From the IMG/VR virus record IMGVR_UViG_2687453364_000004: a DNA stretch of 43,538 bases. One strand, given 5' to 3'. Positions 2,753 to 43,538 of this stretch are shown here, piece after piece (the first letter of the stretch is position 1; every line of letters starts with the position of its first letter). The notes beneath the pieces are model-generated. The model saw nothing but the letters and a program-made list of their open reading frames with translations, searched no databases and was not told where the DNA came from. The translations under genes were made by a program, and so were the position numbers. This DNA is from a virus (Duplodnaviria > Heunggongvirae > Uroviricota > Caudoviricetes).

Positions 2753-5700
2753 TCAACTGATACTGATGCCGGCTGTTGATTTCTTCATCACGACAACAAG
2801 AAGGTCGCTGATACTGGTCGTTGGCGTCCAGTTATTTGCACCATATGAAGAAACATTGAAAGTCAGGGTGACATGGCCGTGTCCGGCAGGCATATCAATG
2901 ACTGATGAAAATACCCTGCTGACATCCGTCGCGGGTTGCTGAAAGATTTCCTGTCCGTTCTTCAGCACCTGCAGCTTACAGGTTGAATACCAGTATGACT
3001 GTTGGTTGTTGCTGTTGAAGTTTTCATGCTTACCACCGCGAAACAGAACGGGGGGGACGACTATCTGACGGTCAAAAGCCTGGTCATCGTACACAGTGAC
3101 CGTTATTGTACCGCTGGCATAACTGCCATTTCTCGGAAAGGCTTTTCCCACCGTTTTGACAATATCACCTTCAATCTGGTTAGCTGACAGTTTTCCCAGA
3201 ATCCGACAGTTCTGGTTAATCGTGACATTATTGAGCGTCCCGGAGTTCGCATTCACGTTACCGCTGATATCCGCATTTCTCGCAGAAAGTCGACCATCAG
3301 GTGTCAGTGAAAACGTTGGGGGATTGCCACCGCTGGTAATGGTGGGAGCCGTCAGATATTTCAGGAACACTTCGTTCATGAATATCTGATCGCCCTGCCC
3401 AACAAACATCGGCTTTGTATTGCCATTCGCAGGATTAATCATCGCAATCCTGTCCGCCGCCAGCAGCACCTGACTCTGCATACCGTCAGGGGTATTCTCA
3501 ATACCGGCACCAATACCCGCGATATAAAGGCGTCCGTCCTGCATCTGCTGCAGCTTCACAGCCCACATGCTGTTCAGGTTATTATTTGTATCAACCTGAA
3601 CCTTCTGTATCTGCTGGATCGCTGCACTCTGGTCTTCCAGTTTCTTATTGACGGTCTGCGTGATTTCATTGCTGACATCCGTAATGGACGTCCTGATTTC
3701 AGCCAGGTCAGGCGCAAGCTGACCGTTATCAATCTGCGTCCACAACTCCTGAGCCAGATGGGTTTTCCCTATCTCTCCTTTGAAAAAATCCAGATAGCCG
3801 GATGCATCATCACTCGGCTGGCCAACAGCCTCCACAAATGCCGATTTGCCAACGGTGTTCACACTGCGAATGTAAAAATAATAATCATGGCCCGGTTTGA
3901 TATTGATACTGGCGGCTATCCAGTACAGCGCCGTACCAAGATAACGCGCGCTGGCTTCAACCTGCCTGATATCCGCAATCCGCTTTTCCGAGAACCAGAA
4001 CTCAAACTGTACCGTCGGATCATAAACGGCAAGATGCGGCGTTGCGGTTATCTGAAAATAGCCCGGCGTCAGCTCAATCCGCGATGGCGCTGCCGGTGCG
4101 GCAATCCGGAACGATACCGACGCCGGATCCCCCTGCTGCCCCCACGCATTTACCGCCCGGACTGTCAGCCTGTAGTTCCCCAGCGCCAGTTGCCTGAAGC
4201 GGTATGTGGTTTCCGTCGTCCTGGCCGTGCTGACCAGCCGCTCACTGCCGTCATCCGCTGCCACGGTCAGGCGAAGCATAAAGCTCACCCCCTTCACCAC
4301 CTTCGGTGTGTCCCATCGCGCCAGCACCTGATATTCCCCGCTGTCTGCGGTGACTTCTGCGGTCAGGTGCTGCACCGCGGGCGGCGTGACACCATTCACC
4401 GTGCCACTCTGTTCGCCGTCAAAGTGCGCCCCGTTATCCACGATGGTCTCTTTTTCCGGCACATGCTGCACGGCGGTGATGGCATACGTGCCGTCGTCGT
4501 TTTCACGGATACTCACGCAGCGGAACAGTCGCTGGCGCAGCGTCGGCAGCTTCAGCCCCCATACGCTGTATTCAGCAACACCGTCAGGAACACGGCTCAC
4601 TTTCACCTTCACGCCGTCGGTGACGGACTGAACCTCCACGCTGACCGGATTGCCACTTCCGTCAACCAGGCTTATCAGCGTGGTACCGGAGGATGGCAGC
4701 GTGATTTCACGGTCGAGCGTCAGCGTCCGGGTCTGGCTGTTCACCGCCAGCACACGACCACCGGTGCTGATACCGGCATAGTCATCATCGCAGATTTCAA
4801 TGACATCCCCCGGTACATGGCGAAGCCCTTCAGCACCCACGCTGAAGTCCACGGTCTGCGTTTCCAGCAGCTCCGTTTTAATCAGCCACAGCCCGGCGCG
4901 GTGTGCCTGCCCCCGGCTGGTACAGCCAAAGGCATCCATCTTCGTGACGTTACGGCCGTAACGGGCAATGGCCTGCGTATCCTCCACGAGCTCTGTCGCC
5001 GTCTCCCAGCCGTTATCCGGGTCAATCCAGTTCACCTCAACGGCATTATGGCGGTCCTTCAGGGCGCTGAAGCTGTAGCGGAACGGCGCGCCATCATCCG
5101 GCATCACCACATTACTGCGGTTATAGGTCCACACCTTATCTGATGGTCGGTCCTGCACGAACGTCAGCGTCTGCCCGTTCCATACCGGCATACAGCGCAT
5201 CGCCGAGCAGAAATCACTGAGCACATCCCACGCCTTGCGCTGTGTGGTCAGGTACGCATTACAGGTAATGCGCGGCTCCGTGCCGCCAAAGCCGTCCGGC
5301 ACCGACTGGTCGCAGTACTGGCCGATGACATACAGCGCCCATTTATCCACATCCGCCGCACCAAGACGTTTCCCCATGCCGTAGCGCGGATGGGTCAGCA
5401 TATCCCACAGACACCAGGCCATGTTGTTGCTGTATGCCGGTTTTAACGTTCCGTCCCAGATACCGCTGTATTGCCGCGTCTGCGGGTTATAGTTCGACGG
5501 CACCTGCAGAATGCGCCCGCGAAGATGATAATTACGGCTCACCTGCTGGCTGCCGAACTGCTCCGAGTCCACCTGCACGCCAACCAGTGCCGTGTTCGGG
5601 TAGCACTGTTTCACATCGATGATTTCGGTGTATGACGACCAGAGCGTTTTGTTCAGCAGCTGGTCTGTGGTGCTGTCCGGCGTCATCCTGCGCATCCGGA

Positions 5701-6235
5701 TATTAAACGGGCGCGGCGGCAGGTTATCCACCACCACCGAGGCCAGATACTGCGAGGTGGTTTTGCCCTTAATGGTGATGTCTTTTTCCGTCACCCAGCC
5801 ACCGTTACGCTGTATCTGAACCAGCAGGCGAACTTCCGACGGATTCCTGTCTCCCTTTGAGGTGGTTTCCACCAGTGCCTGTACACCGAAGGTAAAGCGC
5901 AGACGGTCGATGTTTGCCGACGTGATGGTCCGGGTGATCGGCGTGTCATATTTCACTTCCGTACCCAGCACCGTCTCGGAGCCGGAGGATTCAAATCCCT
6001 CCGGCGGTGACTGCTCCTGCTCACCGGCCCGGAACACCACCGTGACGCCGGATATATTGGTATTCCCCTCACTGTCCAGCACCGGCGTACTGTTCAGCAG
6101 CACGCTTTTTAATCCATCCACCGGACCTTCAACCGGCCCTTCGCTGATGGCATCGATCACACTCAGCAGCTGCGTGGACTTCAGGTTGTCCTTCGCTTCG
6201 CGCGGGGTATGCCCCTTACTGCTGCCTTTACCCAT
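2753..6235 (-). CDS. J: central tail fibre / host specificity protein J
   Basis: 1160 aa; near-identical to lambda J over the N-terminal ~800 aa ([34 protein letters not shown]...), C-terminal receptor-binding part more divergent. Confidence 0.95.
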
Positions 6236-38596: not shown

Positions 38597-39273
38597 CACC
38601 GGACATTATCCTGCAGCGTACCGGGATCGACGTGAGAGCTGTCGAACAGGGGGATGATGCATGGCACAAATTACGGCTCGGCGTCATCACCGCTTCAGAA
38701 GTTCACAACGTGATAGCAAAGCCCCGCTCAGGAAAGAAGTGGCCTGACATGAAAATGTCCTACTTCCACACCCTGCTGGCTGAGGTTTGCACCGGTGTGG
38801 CTCCGGAAGTTAATGCTAAGGCGCTGGCGTGGGGAAAACAGTACGAGAACGACGCCAGAACCCTGTTTGAATTCACTTCCGGCGTGAATGTTACTGAATC
38901 CCCGATCATCTATCGCGACGAAAGTATGCGCACCGCCTGCTCTCCCGATGGTTTATGCAGTGACGGCAATGGCCTTGAGCTGAAATGCCCGTTTACCTCC
39001 CGGGATTTCATGAAGTTCCGGCTCGGTGGTTTCGAGGCCATAAAGTCGGCTTACATGGCCCAGGTGCAGTACAGCATGTGGGTGACACGAAAAGATGCCT
39101 GGTACTTTGCCAACTATGACCCACGAATGAAGCGTGAAGGCCTGCATTATGTCGTGGTTGAGCGGGATGAAAAGTACATGGCGAGTTTTGACGAGATGGT
39201 GCCGGAGTTCATCGAAAAAATGGACGAAGCACTGGCTGAAATTGGTTTTGTATTTGGAGAGCAATGGCGATGA
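38593..39273 (+). CDS. exo: lambda exonuclease (Red-alpha)
   Basis: 226 aa, [50 protein letters not shown]... near-identical to lambda Exo. Confidence 0.95.
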
Positions 39274-39452
39274 CCCATCCTCACGATAATATCCGGGTAG
39301 GCGCGATCACTTTCGTCTACTCCGTTACAAAGCGAGGCTGGGTATTTCACGGTCTTTCTGTTATCCGAAATCCGCTGAAAGCCCAGCGGCTGGCTGAGGA
39401 GATAAATAATAAACGGGGGGCGGTATGCACAAAGCATCTCCTGTTGAGTTAA
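39264..39452 (+). CDS. small conserved lambdoid protein (lambda orf60a-like)
   Basis: 62-aa ORF immediately after exo; the position and my recollection of the lambda sequence suggest orf60a. Confidence 0.6.
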
Positions 39453-39616
39453 GAACGAGTATTGATTTGGCACATAGCCTTGCTCAAATTGGAGTCAGGT
39501 TTGTGCCAATACCAGCAGAAACAGACGAAGAATTTCATACGTTAGCCACATCCCTTTCACAAAAGCTGGAAATGATGGTGGCGAAAGCAGAAGCAGATGA
39601 GAGAGACCAGGTATGA
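39425..39616 (+). CDS. small conserved lambdoid protein (lambda orf63-like)
   Basis: 63-aa ORF, the next gene after the orf60a-like gene as in lambda. Confidence 0.6.
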   Translation: MHKASPVELRTSIDLAHSLAQIGVRFVPIPAETDEEFHTLATSLSQKLEMMVAKAEADERDQV

Positions 39617-39696
39617 CAACCACTGAATGCATTTTTCTGGCAGCGGGCTTCATATTCTGTGTGCTTATGCTTGCCGACATGGGGCTTGTTCAGTGA
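39613..39696 (+). CDS. possible 27-aa single-TM peptide
   Basis: ATG...TGA reading MTTTECIFLAAGFIFCVLMLADMGLVQ; start overlaps the previous stop; below the track cutoff; speculative. Confidence 0.25.
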   Translation: MTTTECIFLAAGFIFCVLMLADMGLVQ

Positions 39697-39908
39697 CACC
39701 TCAGCAAGAAAATGCCCTTCGCAGCATTGCCCGTCAGGCTAATTCTGAAATCAAAAAAGTCAGACAGCAGTTTCCGGATAAAAACGTCAATGACATTTGC
39801 CGTAGCGTACTGAAGAAGCACCGCGAAACGGTAACGCTGAAGGGATTCACACCGACTCATTTAAGCCTGGCAATCGGCATGTTAAACGGCGTCTTTAAGG
39901 AACGATGA
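39627..39908 (+). CDS. small conserved lambdoid protein (lambda orf61-like)
   Basis: 93-aa track ORF; the conserved part (TPQQENALRSIARQANSEIKKVRQQFPDKNVNDICRSVLKKHRETVTL...) may start at the GTG near 39693. Confidence 0.55.
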   Translation: MHFSGSGLHILCAYACRHGACSVTPQQENALRSIARQANSEIKKVRQQFPDKNVNDICRSVLKKHRETVTLKGFTPTHLSLAIGMLNGVFKER

Positions 39909-39930
39909 ACATGAAAAGCAAAATTATCAG

Positions 39931-39954
39931 GGAGCTACAGGCTCCTTTTTTATT
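39931..39954 (+). terminator. rho-independent terminator in the early-left operon, just upstream of the IS
   Basis: GGAGC-tacag-GCTCC followed by TTTTTTATT; coordinates +/-2. Confidence 0.5.
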
Positions 39955-40043
39955 GTTCGCATTCACCCTCAAGCGTATTAACCAACAGTTCAGGGATTAA
40001 TGAAAGATGGCAGTGAAGTGGTCAACAAAAACTGGCCACCGAG

Positions 40044-41191
<1,148 letters not shown>

Positions 41192-41480
41192 TATGGCACC
41201 TGTGTTGTTCTGAGGTGAGCATATCACCTCTGTTCAGGTGGCCAAATTCAGTAAACCACTTCACAGACATCATTGATTCAGCATCAGAAATAGAAGAATT
41301 ACAGCGCAACACAGCAATAAAAATGCGCCGCCTGAACTACCTGGCTGTATCTGCCACTCATTGTTGTGAGTGTGGCGATCCGATAGATGAACGAAGACGC
41401 CTGGCCGTTCAGGGTTGTCGGACTTGCGCCAGTTGCCAGCAAGATCTGGAGCTTATCCGCAAACAAAGGGGGATTAAGTG

Positions 41481-41807
41481 ATGGCTAACCTGCAACTTGC
41501 TGTTAAAAGTGAATACTTCGATGCCATGATTCGCGGAGAGAAAACGGAAGAGTATCGCTTGTGTAATGACTACTGGAATAAGCGAATTATGTTCCGGGAA
41601 TATGACCGCCTGATTATCACAAAGGGATATCCGAAGCGCGACGATTCCAGTCGCAGAATTGATGTTCCGTATGACGGATATGAAGTGAAGACAATCACAC
41701 ATCCGCACTTTGGCGATAAACCGGTAAAGGTGTTCGCTATAAAGGTGAATATCAGCACTGAATATCAATCCGCACAACACAAGGTCAAGAATGTTCAGAG
41801 TGATTGA
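41481..41807 (+). CDS. ASCH-domain protein
   Basis: 108 aa; GxKxxExR motif (GEKTEEYR) typical of ASCH/PUA-like domains; start overlaps the traR-like stop (TGATG). Confidence 0.55.
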   Translation: MANLQLAVKSEYFDAMIRGEKTEEYRLCNDYWNKRIMFREYDRLIITKGYPKRDDSSRRIDVPYDGYEVKTITHPHFGDKPVKVFAIKVNISTEYQSAQHKVKNVQSD

Positions 41808-42030
41808 CCCTAACACCTGGTACGTCGACCACCACGGCACTCCCTGCAAAATCCTGCGTTCTACCCACAACAAAGTTCACTACATCCGAAAAGGCAGAAC
41901 ATGTATCGCCAGCATGTTCCGCTTTAATCATGACTTTGAACCTGTGAATAAAGCTGATGCAGATCGGATAGCAGAAGAGATCGAAACGGCAGAACACATT
42001 AAGAAGTTACGTGACATGCGCAGGAAATAG
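41791..42030 (+). CDS. hypothetical protein
   Basis: 79-aa ORF overlapping the end of the ASCH gene by 17 nt; basic C-terminus; no family recognised. Confidence 0.4.
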   Translation: MFRVIDPNTWYVDHHGTPCKILRSTHNKVHYIRKGRTCIASMFRFNHDFEPVNKADADRIAEEIETAEHIKKLRDMRRK

Positions 42031-42169
42031 AAAAATTGATAAATTCAATACTGCATTTCTCAGCATTAAATTTATCTCTATGACCAGTCAAGAGATGTAC
42101 CTGCCATGAGCTTAATATCATGTCAGATATATCGGTCACAAACTCCCTCAGCAGCTAAGAGGAGGACAA

Positions 42170-42406
42170 ATGTCTCGACTAATCACTTTACAGGACTGGG
42201 CTAAAGAAGAATTTGGGGACTTAGCACCAAGTGAGCGAGTTCTGAAAAAATACGCGCAAGGGAAAATGATGGCCCCACCCGCTATAAAAGTTGGTCGCTA
42301 CTGGATGATTGACCGAAATTCCCGTTTTGTAGGAACGCTTGCAGAACCGCAACTCCCAATAAACGCAAACCCAAAACTCCAAAGGATAATCGCTGATGGC
42401 TGCTAG
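42170..42406 (+). CDS. xis: excisionase Xis
   Basis: 78 aa, MSRLITLQDWAKEEFG...PPAIKVGRYWM resembles the lambda Xis winged-helix N-terminus (MYLTLQEW...PPPVKDGREYLF); strong AAGAGGAGG Shine-Dalgarno; overlaps int by 11 nt. Confidence 0.85.
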   Translation: MSRLITLQDWAKEEFGDLAPSERVLKKYAQGKMMAPPAIKVGRYWMIDRNSRFVGTLAEPQLPINANPKLQRIIADGC

Positions 42407-43538
42407 ACCCCGATCTCACAAAATCTCTATACCCAATTTATATTGCAAATTAGATAAGCGAACCGGAAAGGTATATTGGCAATACAAACATCCACTATCC
42501 GGTCGTTTTCATAGCTTAGGAACTGATGAGAATGAAGCAAAACAAGTTGCTACTGAAGCAAATACCATTATTGCTGAACAACGTACCAGACAAATATTAA
42601 GCGTCAATGAGCGTCTGGAAAGAATGAAAGGCAGGCGCTCAGACATTACGGTGACAGAATGGCTTGATAAATATATTTCTATCCAAGAGGACAGGCTGCA
42701 ACATAATGAACTAAGACCCAACTCCTATCGGCAAAAAGGCAAACCCATTCGTCTTTTCCGTGAGCATTGTGGAATGCAACACCTCAAGGATATTACCGCA
42801 CTTGATATTGCCGAAATAATTGATGCTGTAAAGGCTGAAGGTCATAACAGGATGGCGCAAGTCGTGAGAATGGTGTTGATCGACGTCTTCAAAGAAGCAC
42901 AACACGCAGGACATGTTCCGCCAGGATTTAACCCAGCGCAGGCAACAAAACAACCGCGAAATCGAGTAAACCGCCAAAGATTGTCACTGCCCGAATGGCA
43001 GGCAATATTTGACAGCGTAAGCAGACGGCAGCCCTATTTAAAATGCGGCATGCTACTTGCTCTTGTTACTGGACAACGTTTAGGCGATATCTGCAATTTG
43101 AAATTCTCTGATATATGGGACGACATGTTGCACATTACTCAGGAAAAAACCGGTTCAAAACTTGCTATTCCGCTTAACCTGAAATGCGATGCTCTGAATA
43201 TTACCCTTCGTGAAGTTATATCTCAGTGCAGGGATGCTGTTGTTAGTAAATATCTGGTCCATTACCGTCACACTACCTCTCAAGCAAACAGAGGAGACCA
43301 GGTTTCTGCAAATACTCTGACAACGGCTTTTAAAAAGGCCCGGGAAAAATGTGGCATAAAATGGGAGCAAGGAACTGCGCCCACATTTCATGAGCAGCGA
43401 TCTCTGTCAGAACGGTTATATCGGGAACAGGGTCTGGATACGCAAAAGTTGTTAGGCCATAAATCCAGAAAAATGACCGACCGATACAATGATGATCGTG
43501 GTAAAGACTGGATTATCGTAGATATCAAAACAGCATAG
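42396..43538 (+). CDS. int: lambda-family tyrosine integrase
   Basis: 380 aa; the N-terminus (RPRSHKISIPNLYCKLDKRTGKVYWQYKHPLSGRFHSLGTD) parallels lambda Int; catalytic region with TGQRLGDIC, HEQRSLSERLY and LLGHKS...Y as in lambda Int (~45% identity estimated by eye); the stop is the last codon of the window. Confidence 0.9.
   Translation: MAARPRSHKISIPNLYCKLDKRTGKVYWQYKHPLSGRFHSLGTDENEAKQVATEANTIIAEQRTRQILSVNERLERMKGRRSDITVTEWLDKYISIQEDRLQHNELRPNSYRQKGKPIRLFREHCGMQHLKDITALDIAEIIDAVKAEGHNRMAQVVRMVLIDVFKEAQHAGHVPPGFNPAQATKQPRNRVNRQRLSLPEWQAIFDSVSRRQPYLKCGMLLALVTGQRLGDICNLKFSDIWDDMLHITQEKTGSKLAIPLNLKCDALNITLREVISQCRDAVVSKYLVHYRHTTSQANRGDQVSANTLTTAFKKAREKCGIKWEQGTAPTFHEQRSLSERLYREQGLDTQKLLGHKSRKMTDRYNDDRGKDWIIVDIKTA

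Follow-up and report, generated by a model that had tools for sequence, protein, structure and literature searches.

An ASCH-like gene and an overlapping DUF4222 gene beside xis in a phage-21-like prophage: most likely independent accessory genes

When two small phage genes overlap, do they form a functional pair, or are they neighbours that an accident of mutation has brought into contact? And what might their proteins do? These questions are raised by a locus in IMG/VR virus record IMGVR_UViG_2687453364_000004, a stretch of 43,538 nucleotides which we analysed and refer to as the window. The first-pass annotation described this locus as an ASCH-domain protein and an overlapping 79-aa partner, forming a two-gene unit upstream of xis and downstream of an IS911. 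An ORF scan finds an ASCH-like gene of 108 aa at 41481-41807 and a DUF4222 gene of 79 aa at 41791-42030, both on the plus strand and overlapping by 17 nt. RefSeq has coding sequences at 5482-5808 and 5792-6031 of the matching locus in the identical chromosome of E. coli uk_P46212, which correspond to exactly these positions, under the names ‘ASCH domain-containing protein’ (WP_000002139.1) and ‘DUF4222 domain-containing protein’ (WP_000490213.1). That is, both open reading frames are real and lie where they had been placed. The features of the region are as follows.

40014..41263, minus strand: IS3-family insertion sequence (ISEc52 in RefSeq, IS911-like), 1,250 bp; orfA/orfB on the minus strand, TGAAGTGG ends
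41264..41481, plus strand: TraR/DksA-type zinc-finger gene, 3' part (codons 3-73); zf-dskA_traR, E=1e-8
41481..41807, plus strand: ASCH-like gene (predicted PUA fold), 108 aa from ATG; RefSeq, phrog_625, AlphaFold, Foldseek
41535..41558, plus strand: codons of the ASCH octapeptide G20-E-K22-T-E-E25-Y-R27 (GxKxxExR, ‘GKER’ type); ORF translation
41763..41807, plus strand: read-through C-terminal tail of the ASCH-like gene (Y96-D109 and TGA); TAA-to-TAT at codon 96, nt 41765
41791..42030, plus strand: DUF4222 gene, 79 aa; PF13973, phrog_285, AlphaFold, RgdR similarity
42170..42406, plus strand: xis, excisionase of phage-21 type; profile and similarity searches
42396..43538, plus strand: int, tyrosine integrase of phage-21 type; prophage at icd

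The prophage is lambdoid and phage-21-like, it is integrated at icd, and the two genes lie at its int end, with xis starting 139 nt downstream of the end of the DUF4222 gene. Three E. coli chromosomes match the final 5 kb of the window at 100% identity, and phage 21, ev207 and PhiR63_2 (genus Jouyvirus) match it at 98-100%; the phage 21 DNA of this locus is public as GenBank M61865. The gene order is exo, DUF1317, DUF1382, an orf61-like gene, the TraR/DksA zinc finger, ASCH, DUF4222, xis, int and then host icd. The first-pass annotation was right to put the pair in the accessory (exo-xis) region near int, ahead of xis. Small early genes in mosaic combinations make up the exo-xis region, which is reported to influence whether lambdoid and Shiga-toxin phages enter lysis or lysogeny. 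Like its known members (orf60a, orf63, orf61, the orf73/TraR-like gene, ea22 and ea8.5), the ASCH and DUF4222 genes occupy the slot between exo and xis and belong to a class that is small, non-essential, mosaic and early; in phage 21 they sit at the position held in lambda by ea22, ea8.5 and orf55. Unlike those genes, ASCH and DUF4222 are absent from the exo-xis proteins studied or modelled to date. An Rfam search (E≤0.1) of positions 39000-43538 returned no match, and a scan for promoters and terminators over 39600-42500 gave hits at chance level only and yielded no assignable internal promoter for the two genes.

The insertion sequence upstream bears on the zinc-finger gene. The structural features looked for in an IS911 element are all there: the length of 1,250 bp, terminal repeats that read TGAAGTGG, a frameshifted orfA/orfB arrangement, and a target site duplicated over 3 bp, here CAG at 40011-40013 and again at 41264-41266. 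RefSeq, however, names it ISEc52, a member of the IS3 family, and this corrects the earlier call: the element is IS911-like rather than demonstrably IS911. Alignment to the corresponding junction in phage 21 shows that the element was inserted after nucleotide 7 of the zinc-finger gene, whose first 7 nt (ATGGCAG) lie on the far side of the element at 40007-40013. The start codon and ribosome-binding site are therefore cut off from the body of the gene at 41264-41481. An intact homologue of the zinc-finger protein is known (MADIIDSASEIEEL...), and the gene is a homologue of lambda Orf73/TraR (zf-dskA_traR profile; PMC9239242). The ASCH-like gene's own Shine-Dalgarno sequence is intact despite the insertion.

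Is the first of the two genes an ASCH gene? Its ATG at 41481 overlaps the TGA of the zinc-finger gene and has GGGGGA, a Shine-Dalgarno sequence, just 5' of it; an in-frame GTG at 41478, one codon earlier, gives a form of 109 aa, from which residues in our alignments are numbered. The GxKxxExR octapeptide on which the ASCH call had been based is present, encoded at 41535-41558. Among the PHROGs the protein belongs to phrog_625 (E=2.5e-51), whose annotated function is unknown. A search with the Pfam ASCH model (PF04266), suggested earlier as a check, yielded a marginal match: E=0.068 and 14.3 bits against a gathering cutoff of 21.2 bits, covering residues 7-29 only, i.e., the motif region. Among 59 diverse members of the family, the Pfam ASCH model reaches E≤0.01 in 4 and the related DUF3850 in 3, and the sub-threshold matches of family members all fall in one clan, either ASCH or DUF3850. 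NCBIfam has no match for the ASCH-like protein, the DUF4222 protein or xis. When PDB chains were searched with the ASCH-like sequence and two family profiles, no ASCH protein was found, only chance matches with E of at least 0.04. Longer members of the family offered no usable domain fusion: they contained only read-through of a neighbouring gene (Ea22) and weak sub-threshold matches, such as RVT_1 (E=0.007), SH3_18 (E=0.0098) and DUF3850. One ASCH fusion, P0235, with a weak SH3-like match, was considered as having a DUF4222-like C-terminus, but hhalign found nothing there.

The structure prediction is more informative about the fold. The AlphaFold model of the ASCH-like protein (pLDDT 83, pTM 0.71) is a PUA-like beta-barrel in which beta1 (3-9) is followed by alpha1 (11-18), the GxK loop and beta2 (24-28), so that the motif falls at the alpha1-beta2 junction, its canonical place. 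When the model is compared with the PDB by Foldseek, the top match is the E. faecalis ASCH protein 3iuw (probability 0.99, E=0.013, TM 0.42/0.55), and the other leading matches are 1wk2, ZmASCH (5gus), YTH domains and TthASCH (2dp9); for this predicted model the TM-scores to solved ASCH structures are modest, at 0.42-0.55. In BFVD, once members of the same family are passed, names such as DUF3850, ASCH, ‘activating signal cointegrator’ and RNA-binding occur among the matches. The top structural matches have probabilities of 0.96-1.0 in these two independent libraries, and are of the ASCH, DUF3850 or PUA-like kind.

Conservation was assessed in an alignment of 41 family sequences with 37-76% identity. 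Within the octapeptide, K22 is found in 41/41 sequences and G20, E25 and R27 in 40/41 each; position 13, nine residues ahead of the lysine, is aromatic in 40/41. Beyond the motif, W33 and G67 are conserved in 41/41, Y51 in 40/41 and H75 in 38/41, and the residues W33, the G50-Y51-P52 motif, H75 and G67 are specific to this family. The near-invariant aromatic and histidine residues suggest a nucleobase pocket. From the predicted fold and the motif we take the protein, whose core is about 94 aa long, to be a ‘GKER’-type member of the ASCH/PUA-like superfamily that is both minimal and divergent; judged by its sequence, it lies outside the Pfam ASCH family as that model draws it. The original ASCH call thus stands at the level of the superfamily, where it is supported by the octapeptide, the predicted PUA-like fold and Foldseek, and is marginal, short of the cutoff, at the level of the Pfam profile.

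It is useful to set the protein beside its closest known counterparts. With the GKER subgroup of ASCH proteins (TthASCH/2DP9, EF ASCH/3IUW, ZmASCH/5GUS, EOLA1 and the ASCH domain of TRIP4) it has in common the Lys, Glu and Arg of GxKxxExR, a single domain of about 90-120 aa, and a predicted PUA-like barrel with the motif between alpha1 and beta2. It also has an aromatic residue 9 positions ahead of the lysine, like Tyr14 relative to Lys23 in TthASCH. It differs in being shorter than most of them (a 94-aa core), in being phage-borne, in forming a family of its own, phrog_625, and in being too divergent for detection by the Pfam ASCH model, or for detection of the solved members by HMM or hhalign. 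E. coli YqfB, an N4-acetylcytidine amidohydrolase and a GKTR-type ASCH protein, is of similar size (103 aa) and has the motif in the same register (RFQDDILAGRKTITIR versus EYFDAMIRGEKTEEYR), but carries Thr where the phage protein has Glu in the octapeptide, and there is no significant similarity beyond the motif. An hhalign comparison of the family profile with YqfB aligned the 16-residue motif region alone, at a probability of 0.3%, which is not significant. By analogy, the phage protein is a candidate for YqfB-like chemistry.

The family is widespread. It comprises 1,312 representatives of 50%-identity clusters (E≤1e-3) and is present in 333 of 50,697 phage records, including HK022, Stx phages of the VT2-Sakai/933W type, ST104, BTP1 and Jersey-like Salmonella siphophages (vB_SenS-type, f18SE), along with phages of Klebsiella, Ralstonia, Brucella and Acidovorax. 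Among 5,426 complete E. coli genomes, 1,462 (~27%) carry an ASCH-like gene. Its start codon often overlaps the stop codon of the preceding gene, an arrangement typical of tightly packed early operons. Its neighbours vary: some are unknown genes, others DUF550/MazG-like, DUF551 or DUF4752. Several genomes have it in the replication/nin region, directly upstream of ninB (NinB).

The 79-aa partner turns out not to be anonymous: it is a confident member of the DUF4222 family. Pfam DUF4222 (PF13973) matches residues 4-53 with a score of 68.5 bits (cutoff 27, E=3.6e-19), PHROGs assigns the protein to phrog_285 (E=6e-37), and its gene has AAGG 7 nt upstream of the ATG. Homologues have 63-80% identity in Citrobacter and Enterobacter, and similar identity in Huaxiibacter. 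The AlphaFold model (pLDDT 87) consists of a small five-stranded SH3-like barrel (10-52) followed by a long helix (54-78); its nearest folds are PWWP, the TnsB C-terminal domain, KOW, Tudor and SH3-like barrels. As modelled, the barrel and basic helix are compatible with DNA binding.

The one characterised DUF4222 protein that we found in the literature is RgdR (ECs1581), encoded in the cryptic prophage CP-933C / OI-51 (PMC3378721). RgdR activates LEE1 and type III secretion, represses motility, and binds DNA without sequence specificity; its RGD motif, at residues 20-22, is needed for the activation of type III secretion (PMC3378721). By BLASTP, the DUF4222 protein of the window has 24% identity over 68 aa to ECs1581 from the Sakai genome (pairwise E=7e-6), with residues 24-91 of RgdR aligned to 11-76 of the window protein. 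The RGD lies just N-terminal of the aligned segment, where the window protein reads PNTW, and the RGD motif that we looked for in the window protein is absent. Both proteins are small, basic, prophage-encoded and assigned to Pfam DUF4222; but RgdR has 99 aa and an RGD and adjoins a primase gene in a P4-like element, whereas the window protein has 79 aa and adjoins xis in a lambdoid phage. The two are family relatives and not orthologues, and the effects of RgdR on LEE and motility cannot be transferred to the DUF4222 protein of the window.

How did the two genes come to overlap? In relatives, the ASCH-like gene ends ...GGC ACT GAA TAA, giving a protein of 94 aa, whereas the window and phage 21 read ...AGC ACT GAA TAT. 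The TAA is kept at this site in ev017 and at two further loci (L129 and L123). Loss of the stop adds 14 codons, up to a TGA inside the DUF4222 gene, and the extension crosses the spacer and the Shine-Dalgarno sequence of that gene. In ev017, the downstream DNA is as in the window, and the ASCH gene stops 26 nt before the DUF4222 ATG. Over 94 loci, the mode of ASCH length is 94 aa (62 loci); lengths of 108 or 110 aa occur in 19 loci, all with the YQSAQHK tail. AlphaFold gives the tail low pLDDT values (62 and 46). The 17-nt overlap thus exists because of one TAA-to-TAT stop loss in the phage-21 lineage, and on the sequences compared it is an accident of lineage-specific stop-codon loss. Translational coupling of a functional pair, which might otherwise be read from the overlap, we rejected on the basis of the stop-loss analysis.

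A conserved unit might also be recognised from co-occurrence, independent of the overlap. Among 80 IMG/VR loci gathered with DUF4222 as the seed, 13 have the ASCH gene between the zinc-finger gene and DUF4222, and in 65 the zinc-finger gene lies ~50 nt upstream without it. Starting instead from ASCH, DUF4222 accompanies it in 23 of 79 IMG/VR loci, all 89-100% identical to the window, and is missing from the other 56; these ASCH-seeded loci were gathered with the closer alignment (A1) and have a bias towards Enterobacterales. In species-dereplicated ASCH loci from genomes, which range from Escherichia to an alphaproteobacterial MAG, DUF4222 was present in 0/14. Of the 5,426 complete E. coli genomes, 1,462 contain ASCH and 2,324 contain DUF4222, while 689 have the two genes side by side. 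Each gene is commoner without its partner than with it. In Citrobacter and Enterobacter prophages, DUF4222 is still found near xis, with other neighbours; in Enterobacter, an unrelated gene of 227-232 aa fills the slot between the zinc-finger gene and DUF4222. Since the occupants of this slot differ, the ASCH gene is one of several alternative cassettes there. The neighbourhood survey, with the pair in 13/80, 23/79 and 0/14 loci, therefore does not support the ‘two-gene unit’, and ASCH and DUF4222 are most likely independent early accessory genes of the exo-xis region.

What might the two proteins do? According to a 2026 preprint, the ASCH motif is defined as GxKxx[E/T/S]xR; ac4C is removed from tRNA by every one of the 19 ASCH proteins assayed, GKTR and GKER types alike; the Lys and Glu of the octapeptide form a catalytic dyad essential for tRNA ac4C deacetylation in GKER-type ASCH; and Tyr14 of TthASCH, nine residues ahead of Lys23, contributes (bioRxiv 10.64898/2026.02.27.708502). 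Since the phage family conserves the Lys, the Glu and the upstream aromatic of the tested proteins, we infer an ASCH-type hydrolase. The substrate is uncertain, because some GKER ASCH proteins (ZmASCH, TRIP4) do not hydrolyse free ac4C (bioRxiv 10.64898/2026.02.27.708502) and ZmASCH has been reported as a ribonuclease.

Our preferred reading, to which we assign a probability of roughly 0.6, is that these are two independent accessory genes, encoding a putative ASCH-type amidohydrolase and a putative DUF4222 DNA-binding modulator, whose overlap is accidental. Both genes, tightly packed, would be expressed from pL, near the int end of the early leftward operon. The ASCH-like protein would be an ASCH-type amidohydrolase that the phage makes early. 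It would bind a base that is of cytidine type or modified in some other way, whether in RNA, in tRNA or as a free nucleoside, and would hydrolyse the N4-acyl group, so that ac4C is removed, with the Lys/Glu dyad performing the chemistry; by analogy, hydrolysis of an N4-acylcytidine-type substrate and binding of a nucleobase are both plausible roles. The DUF4222 protein, with its predicted SH3-like barrel and basic C-terminal helix, would bind DNA with low specificity and so modulate gene expression; from RgdR and the fold, it is plausibly a small regulator that binds DNA or another nucleic acid.

Three other readings must be weighed against this one. If the two genes formed a functional module, such as a complex, a translationally coupled enzyme and adaptor, or a toxin-antitoxin-like system, then one would look for it in just such a place, with a 17-nt overlap, a common strand and operon, and an adjacent pair shared by 689 complete E. 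coli genomes together with phage 21, ev207 and PhiR63_2. But the co-occurrence is limited to one close lineage of 89-100% identity; the pair is kept in none of the 14 dereplicated genome loci and in no more-divergent viral locus; DUF4222 usually follows the zinc-finger gene directly; an unrelated 227-232-aa gene takes the same slot in Enterobacter; and the overlap arose from a single stop-loss substitution. We regard a module as highly improbable. The count of 689 is what one would expect from the clonal spread of one prophage lineage, but an interaction specific to that lineage may exist. Even less credit is due to the notion that the ASCH label is a false positive, attached to an unrelated small beta-barrel with a chance GxKxxExR-like string. 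Such a reading accounts for a Pfam score below the gathering threshold over a match of just 23 residues, for the lack of a PDB match at the level of sequence, and for the mere 4/59 family members that reach E≤0.01. It does not account for a motif that falls, in the predicted fold, at its canonical place between alpha1 and beta2, for top matches to ASCH, DUF3850 or PUA-like proteins in two independent structure libraries, for sub-threshold matches of family members that are all to ASCH or DUF3850, or for the fact that the motif residues are the most conserved of the family, and we consider it extremely improbable.

The remaining alternative, and the main rival, accepts the ASCH-like fold and denies the catalysis: the protein would be a non-catalytic reader or sponge of a modified base (methylated or acylated, say), of a nucleotide such as one that triggers a defence, or of modified DNA/RNA, serving in anti-restriction or anti-defence or as an RNA-binding regulator. 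Domains of the PUA/ASCH clan often recognise nucleotides or modified bases through aromatic pockets, as exemplified by a defence-system PUA domain that binds m6-dAMP, and readers of the YTH and SRA type are among the fold matches. The accessory neighbourhoods are rich in DNA methylases and PAPS-reductase-like genes, and the presence of the gene in Jersey-like Salmonella siphophages suggests a role in lytic infection. One of the BFVD neighbours goes by the name ‘Restriction alleviation protein’ (E=1.3e-6, TM 0.66), but the name was assigned automatically to a longer protein from a metagenome, and a different domain may be what it describes. Near-invariant Lys, Glu and Arg, catalytic in the tested ASCH proteins, exceed what binding needs, and the protein matches no PADLOC or anti-defence family; the PADLOC defence models likewise have no match for DUF4222, the zinc finger or RgdR. 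A reader or sponge is possible, and we think it on the unlikely side.

RefSeq and the annotations of phage genomes already give both genes these domain names, and the locus is no new kind of system; since the genes are independent cassettes and not a conserved pair, the finding is an ordinary one. It is useful, nonetheless, to know that the ASCH assignment is a superfamily-level, sub-threshold one, backed by a very well conserved motif of catalytic type; that the partner belongs to the RgdR family, whose sole characterised member alters host virulence-gene expression and motility; and that both genes are part of the understudied exo-xis region.

E. coli elongator tRNA-Met carries ac4C at its wobble base. 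A bolder and distinctly doubtful reading is that the target of the widespread minimal ASCH proteins of phrog_625 is host RNA or else a nucleotide signal, and that the DUF4222 protein is an independent, RgdR-like modulator of host transcription; the ASCH protein would then erase ac4C from tRNA, or hydrolyse or sequester a modified nucleotide. If this were true, the phage would be using an early gene to reprogramme translation or to disarm a defence that senses nucleotides. A minimal ASCH protein that is so common among phages is a cheap target for study, and may, by analogy, prove to be an eraser of the RNA modification ac4C.

The association between the zinc-finger gene (a TraR/DksA-type homologue of lambda Orf73) and the DUF4222 gene is far steadier than that between the ASCH gene and the DUF4222 gene: the Orf73/TraR-like and DUF4222 genes are paired in 78 of 80 viral loci. 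The intervening slot occurs in three states, being empty, occupied by the ASCH gene, or occupied, in Enterobacter, by an unrelated gene of 227-232 aa, for which no Pfam match was found. At least two different xis/int modules are joined to the same DUF4222 gene. The features in question are as follows, with coordinates in the related loci L019, L182 and L183 being internal to each locus.

Window 40014-41263: ISEc52/IS911-like element, within the split zinc-finger gene region (40007-41481)
Window 41264-42030: zinc finger-DUF4222 region (+)
L019 3735-4279; L182 and L183 3110-4240: zinc finger-DUF4222 region
Window 42038-42076: AT-rich inverted repeat with a 16-bp stem, GATAAATT...AATTTATC

In the window, the first 7 nucleotides of the zinc-finger gene (ATGGCAG) precede the insertion sequence, which is accompanied by a CAG target duplication and separates the body of this gene from its own start codon and ribosome-binding site. 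RefSeq keeps the coding sequence by placing its start inside the end of the element. The element has the exo-side early genes upstream of it and, downstream and in this order, the zinc finger, ASCH, DUF4222, xis and int genes; its insertion may therefore exert a polar effect on excision functions. The inverted repeat, for its part, lies between the DUF4222 and xis genes, within the 139 nt that separate the stop codon of the former from the start codon of the latter. It was picked up on the minus strand by a terminator scan, and could serve as a protein-binding site or form a regulatory hairpin.

The closest structural neighbour of the ASCH protein's AlphaFold model in BFVD from outside the family is A0A8S5UN54 (E=1.3e-6, TM 0.66, 24% identity), a 168-aa protein of a metagenomic myovirus which carries the name 'Restriction alleviation protein', and which may be a fusion of the same fold with a Lar-like domain. 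The protein P0271 (364 aa) combines a weak reverse-transcriptase-like N-terminal region (sub-threshold against RVT_1, E=0.007) with an ASCH-family C-terminus that is without beta1; it is probably a chimera produced by gene calling or recombination.

Searching phage records, we find members of the ASCH family in Jersey-like Salmonella siphophages (72-78% identity) and in phages of Ralstonia, Brucella and Acidovorax (about 51%); examples are OP494211.1, KR270151.1 and NC_073188.1. The gene is therefore not confined to the lambdoid prophages of enterobacteria. In several prophages of Enterobacterales, moreover, it lies in the replication/nin region rather than between exo and xis (L086, L087 and L089, around 4001-4290), directly followed on its 3' side by a gene that we take, from its sequence, to be NinB-like. 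Thus, the same cassette moves between the two early operons.
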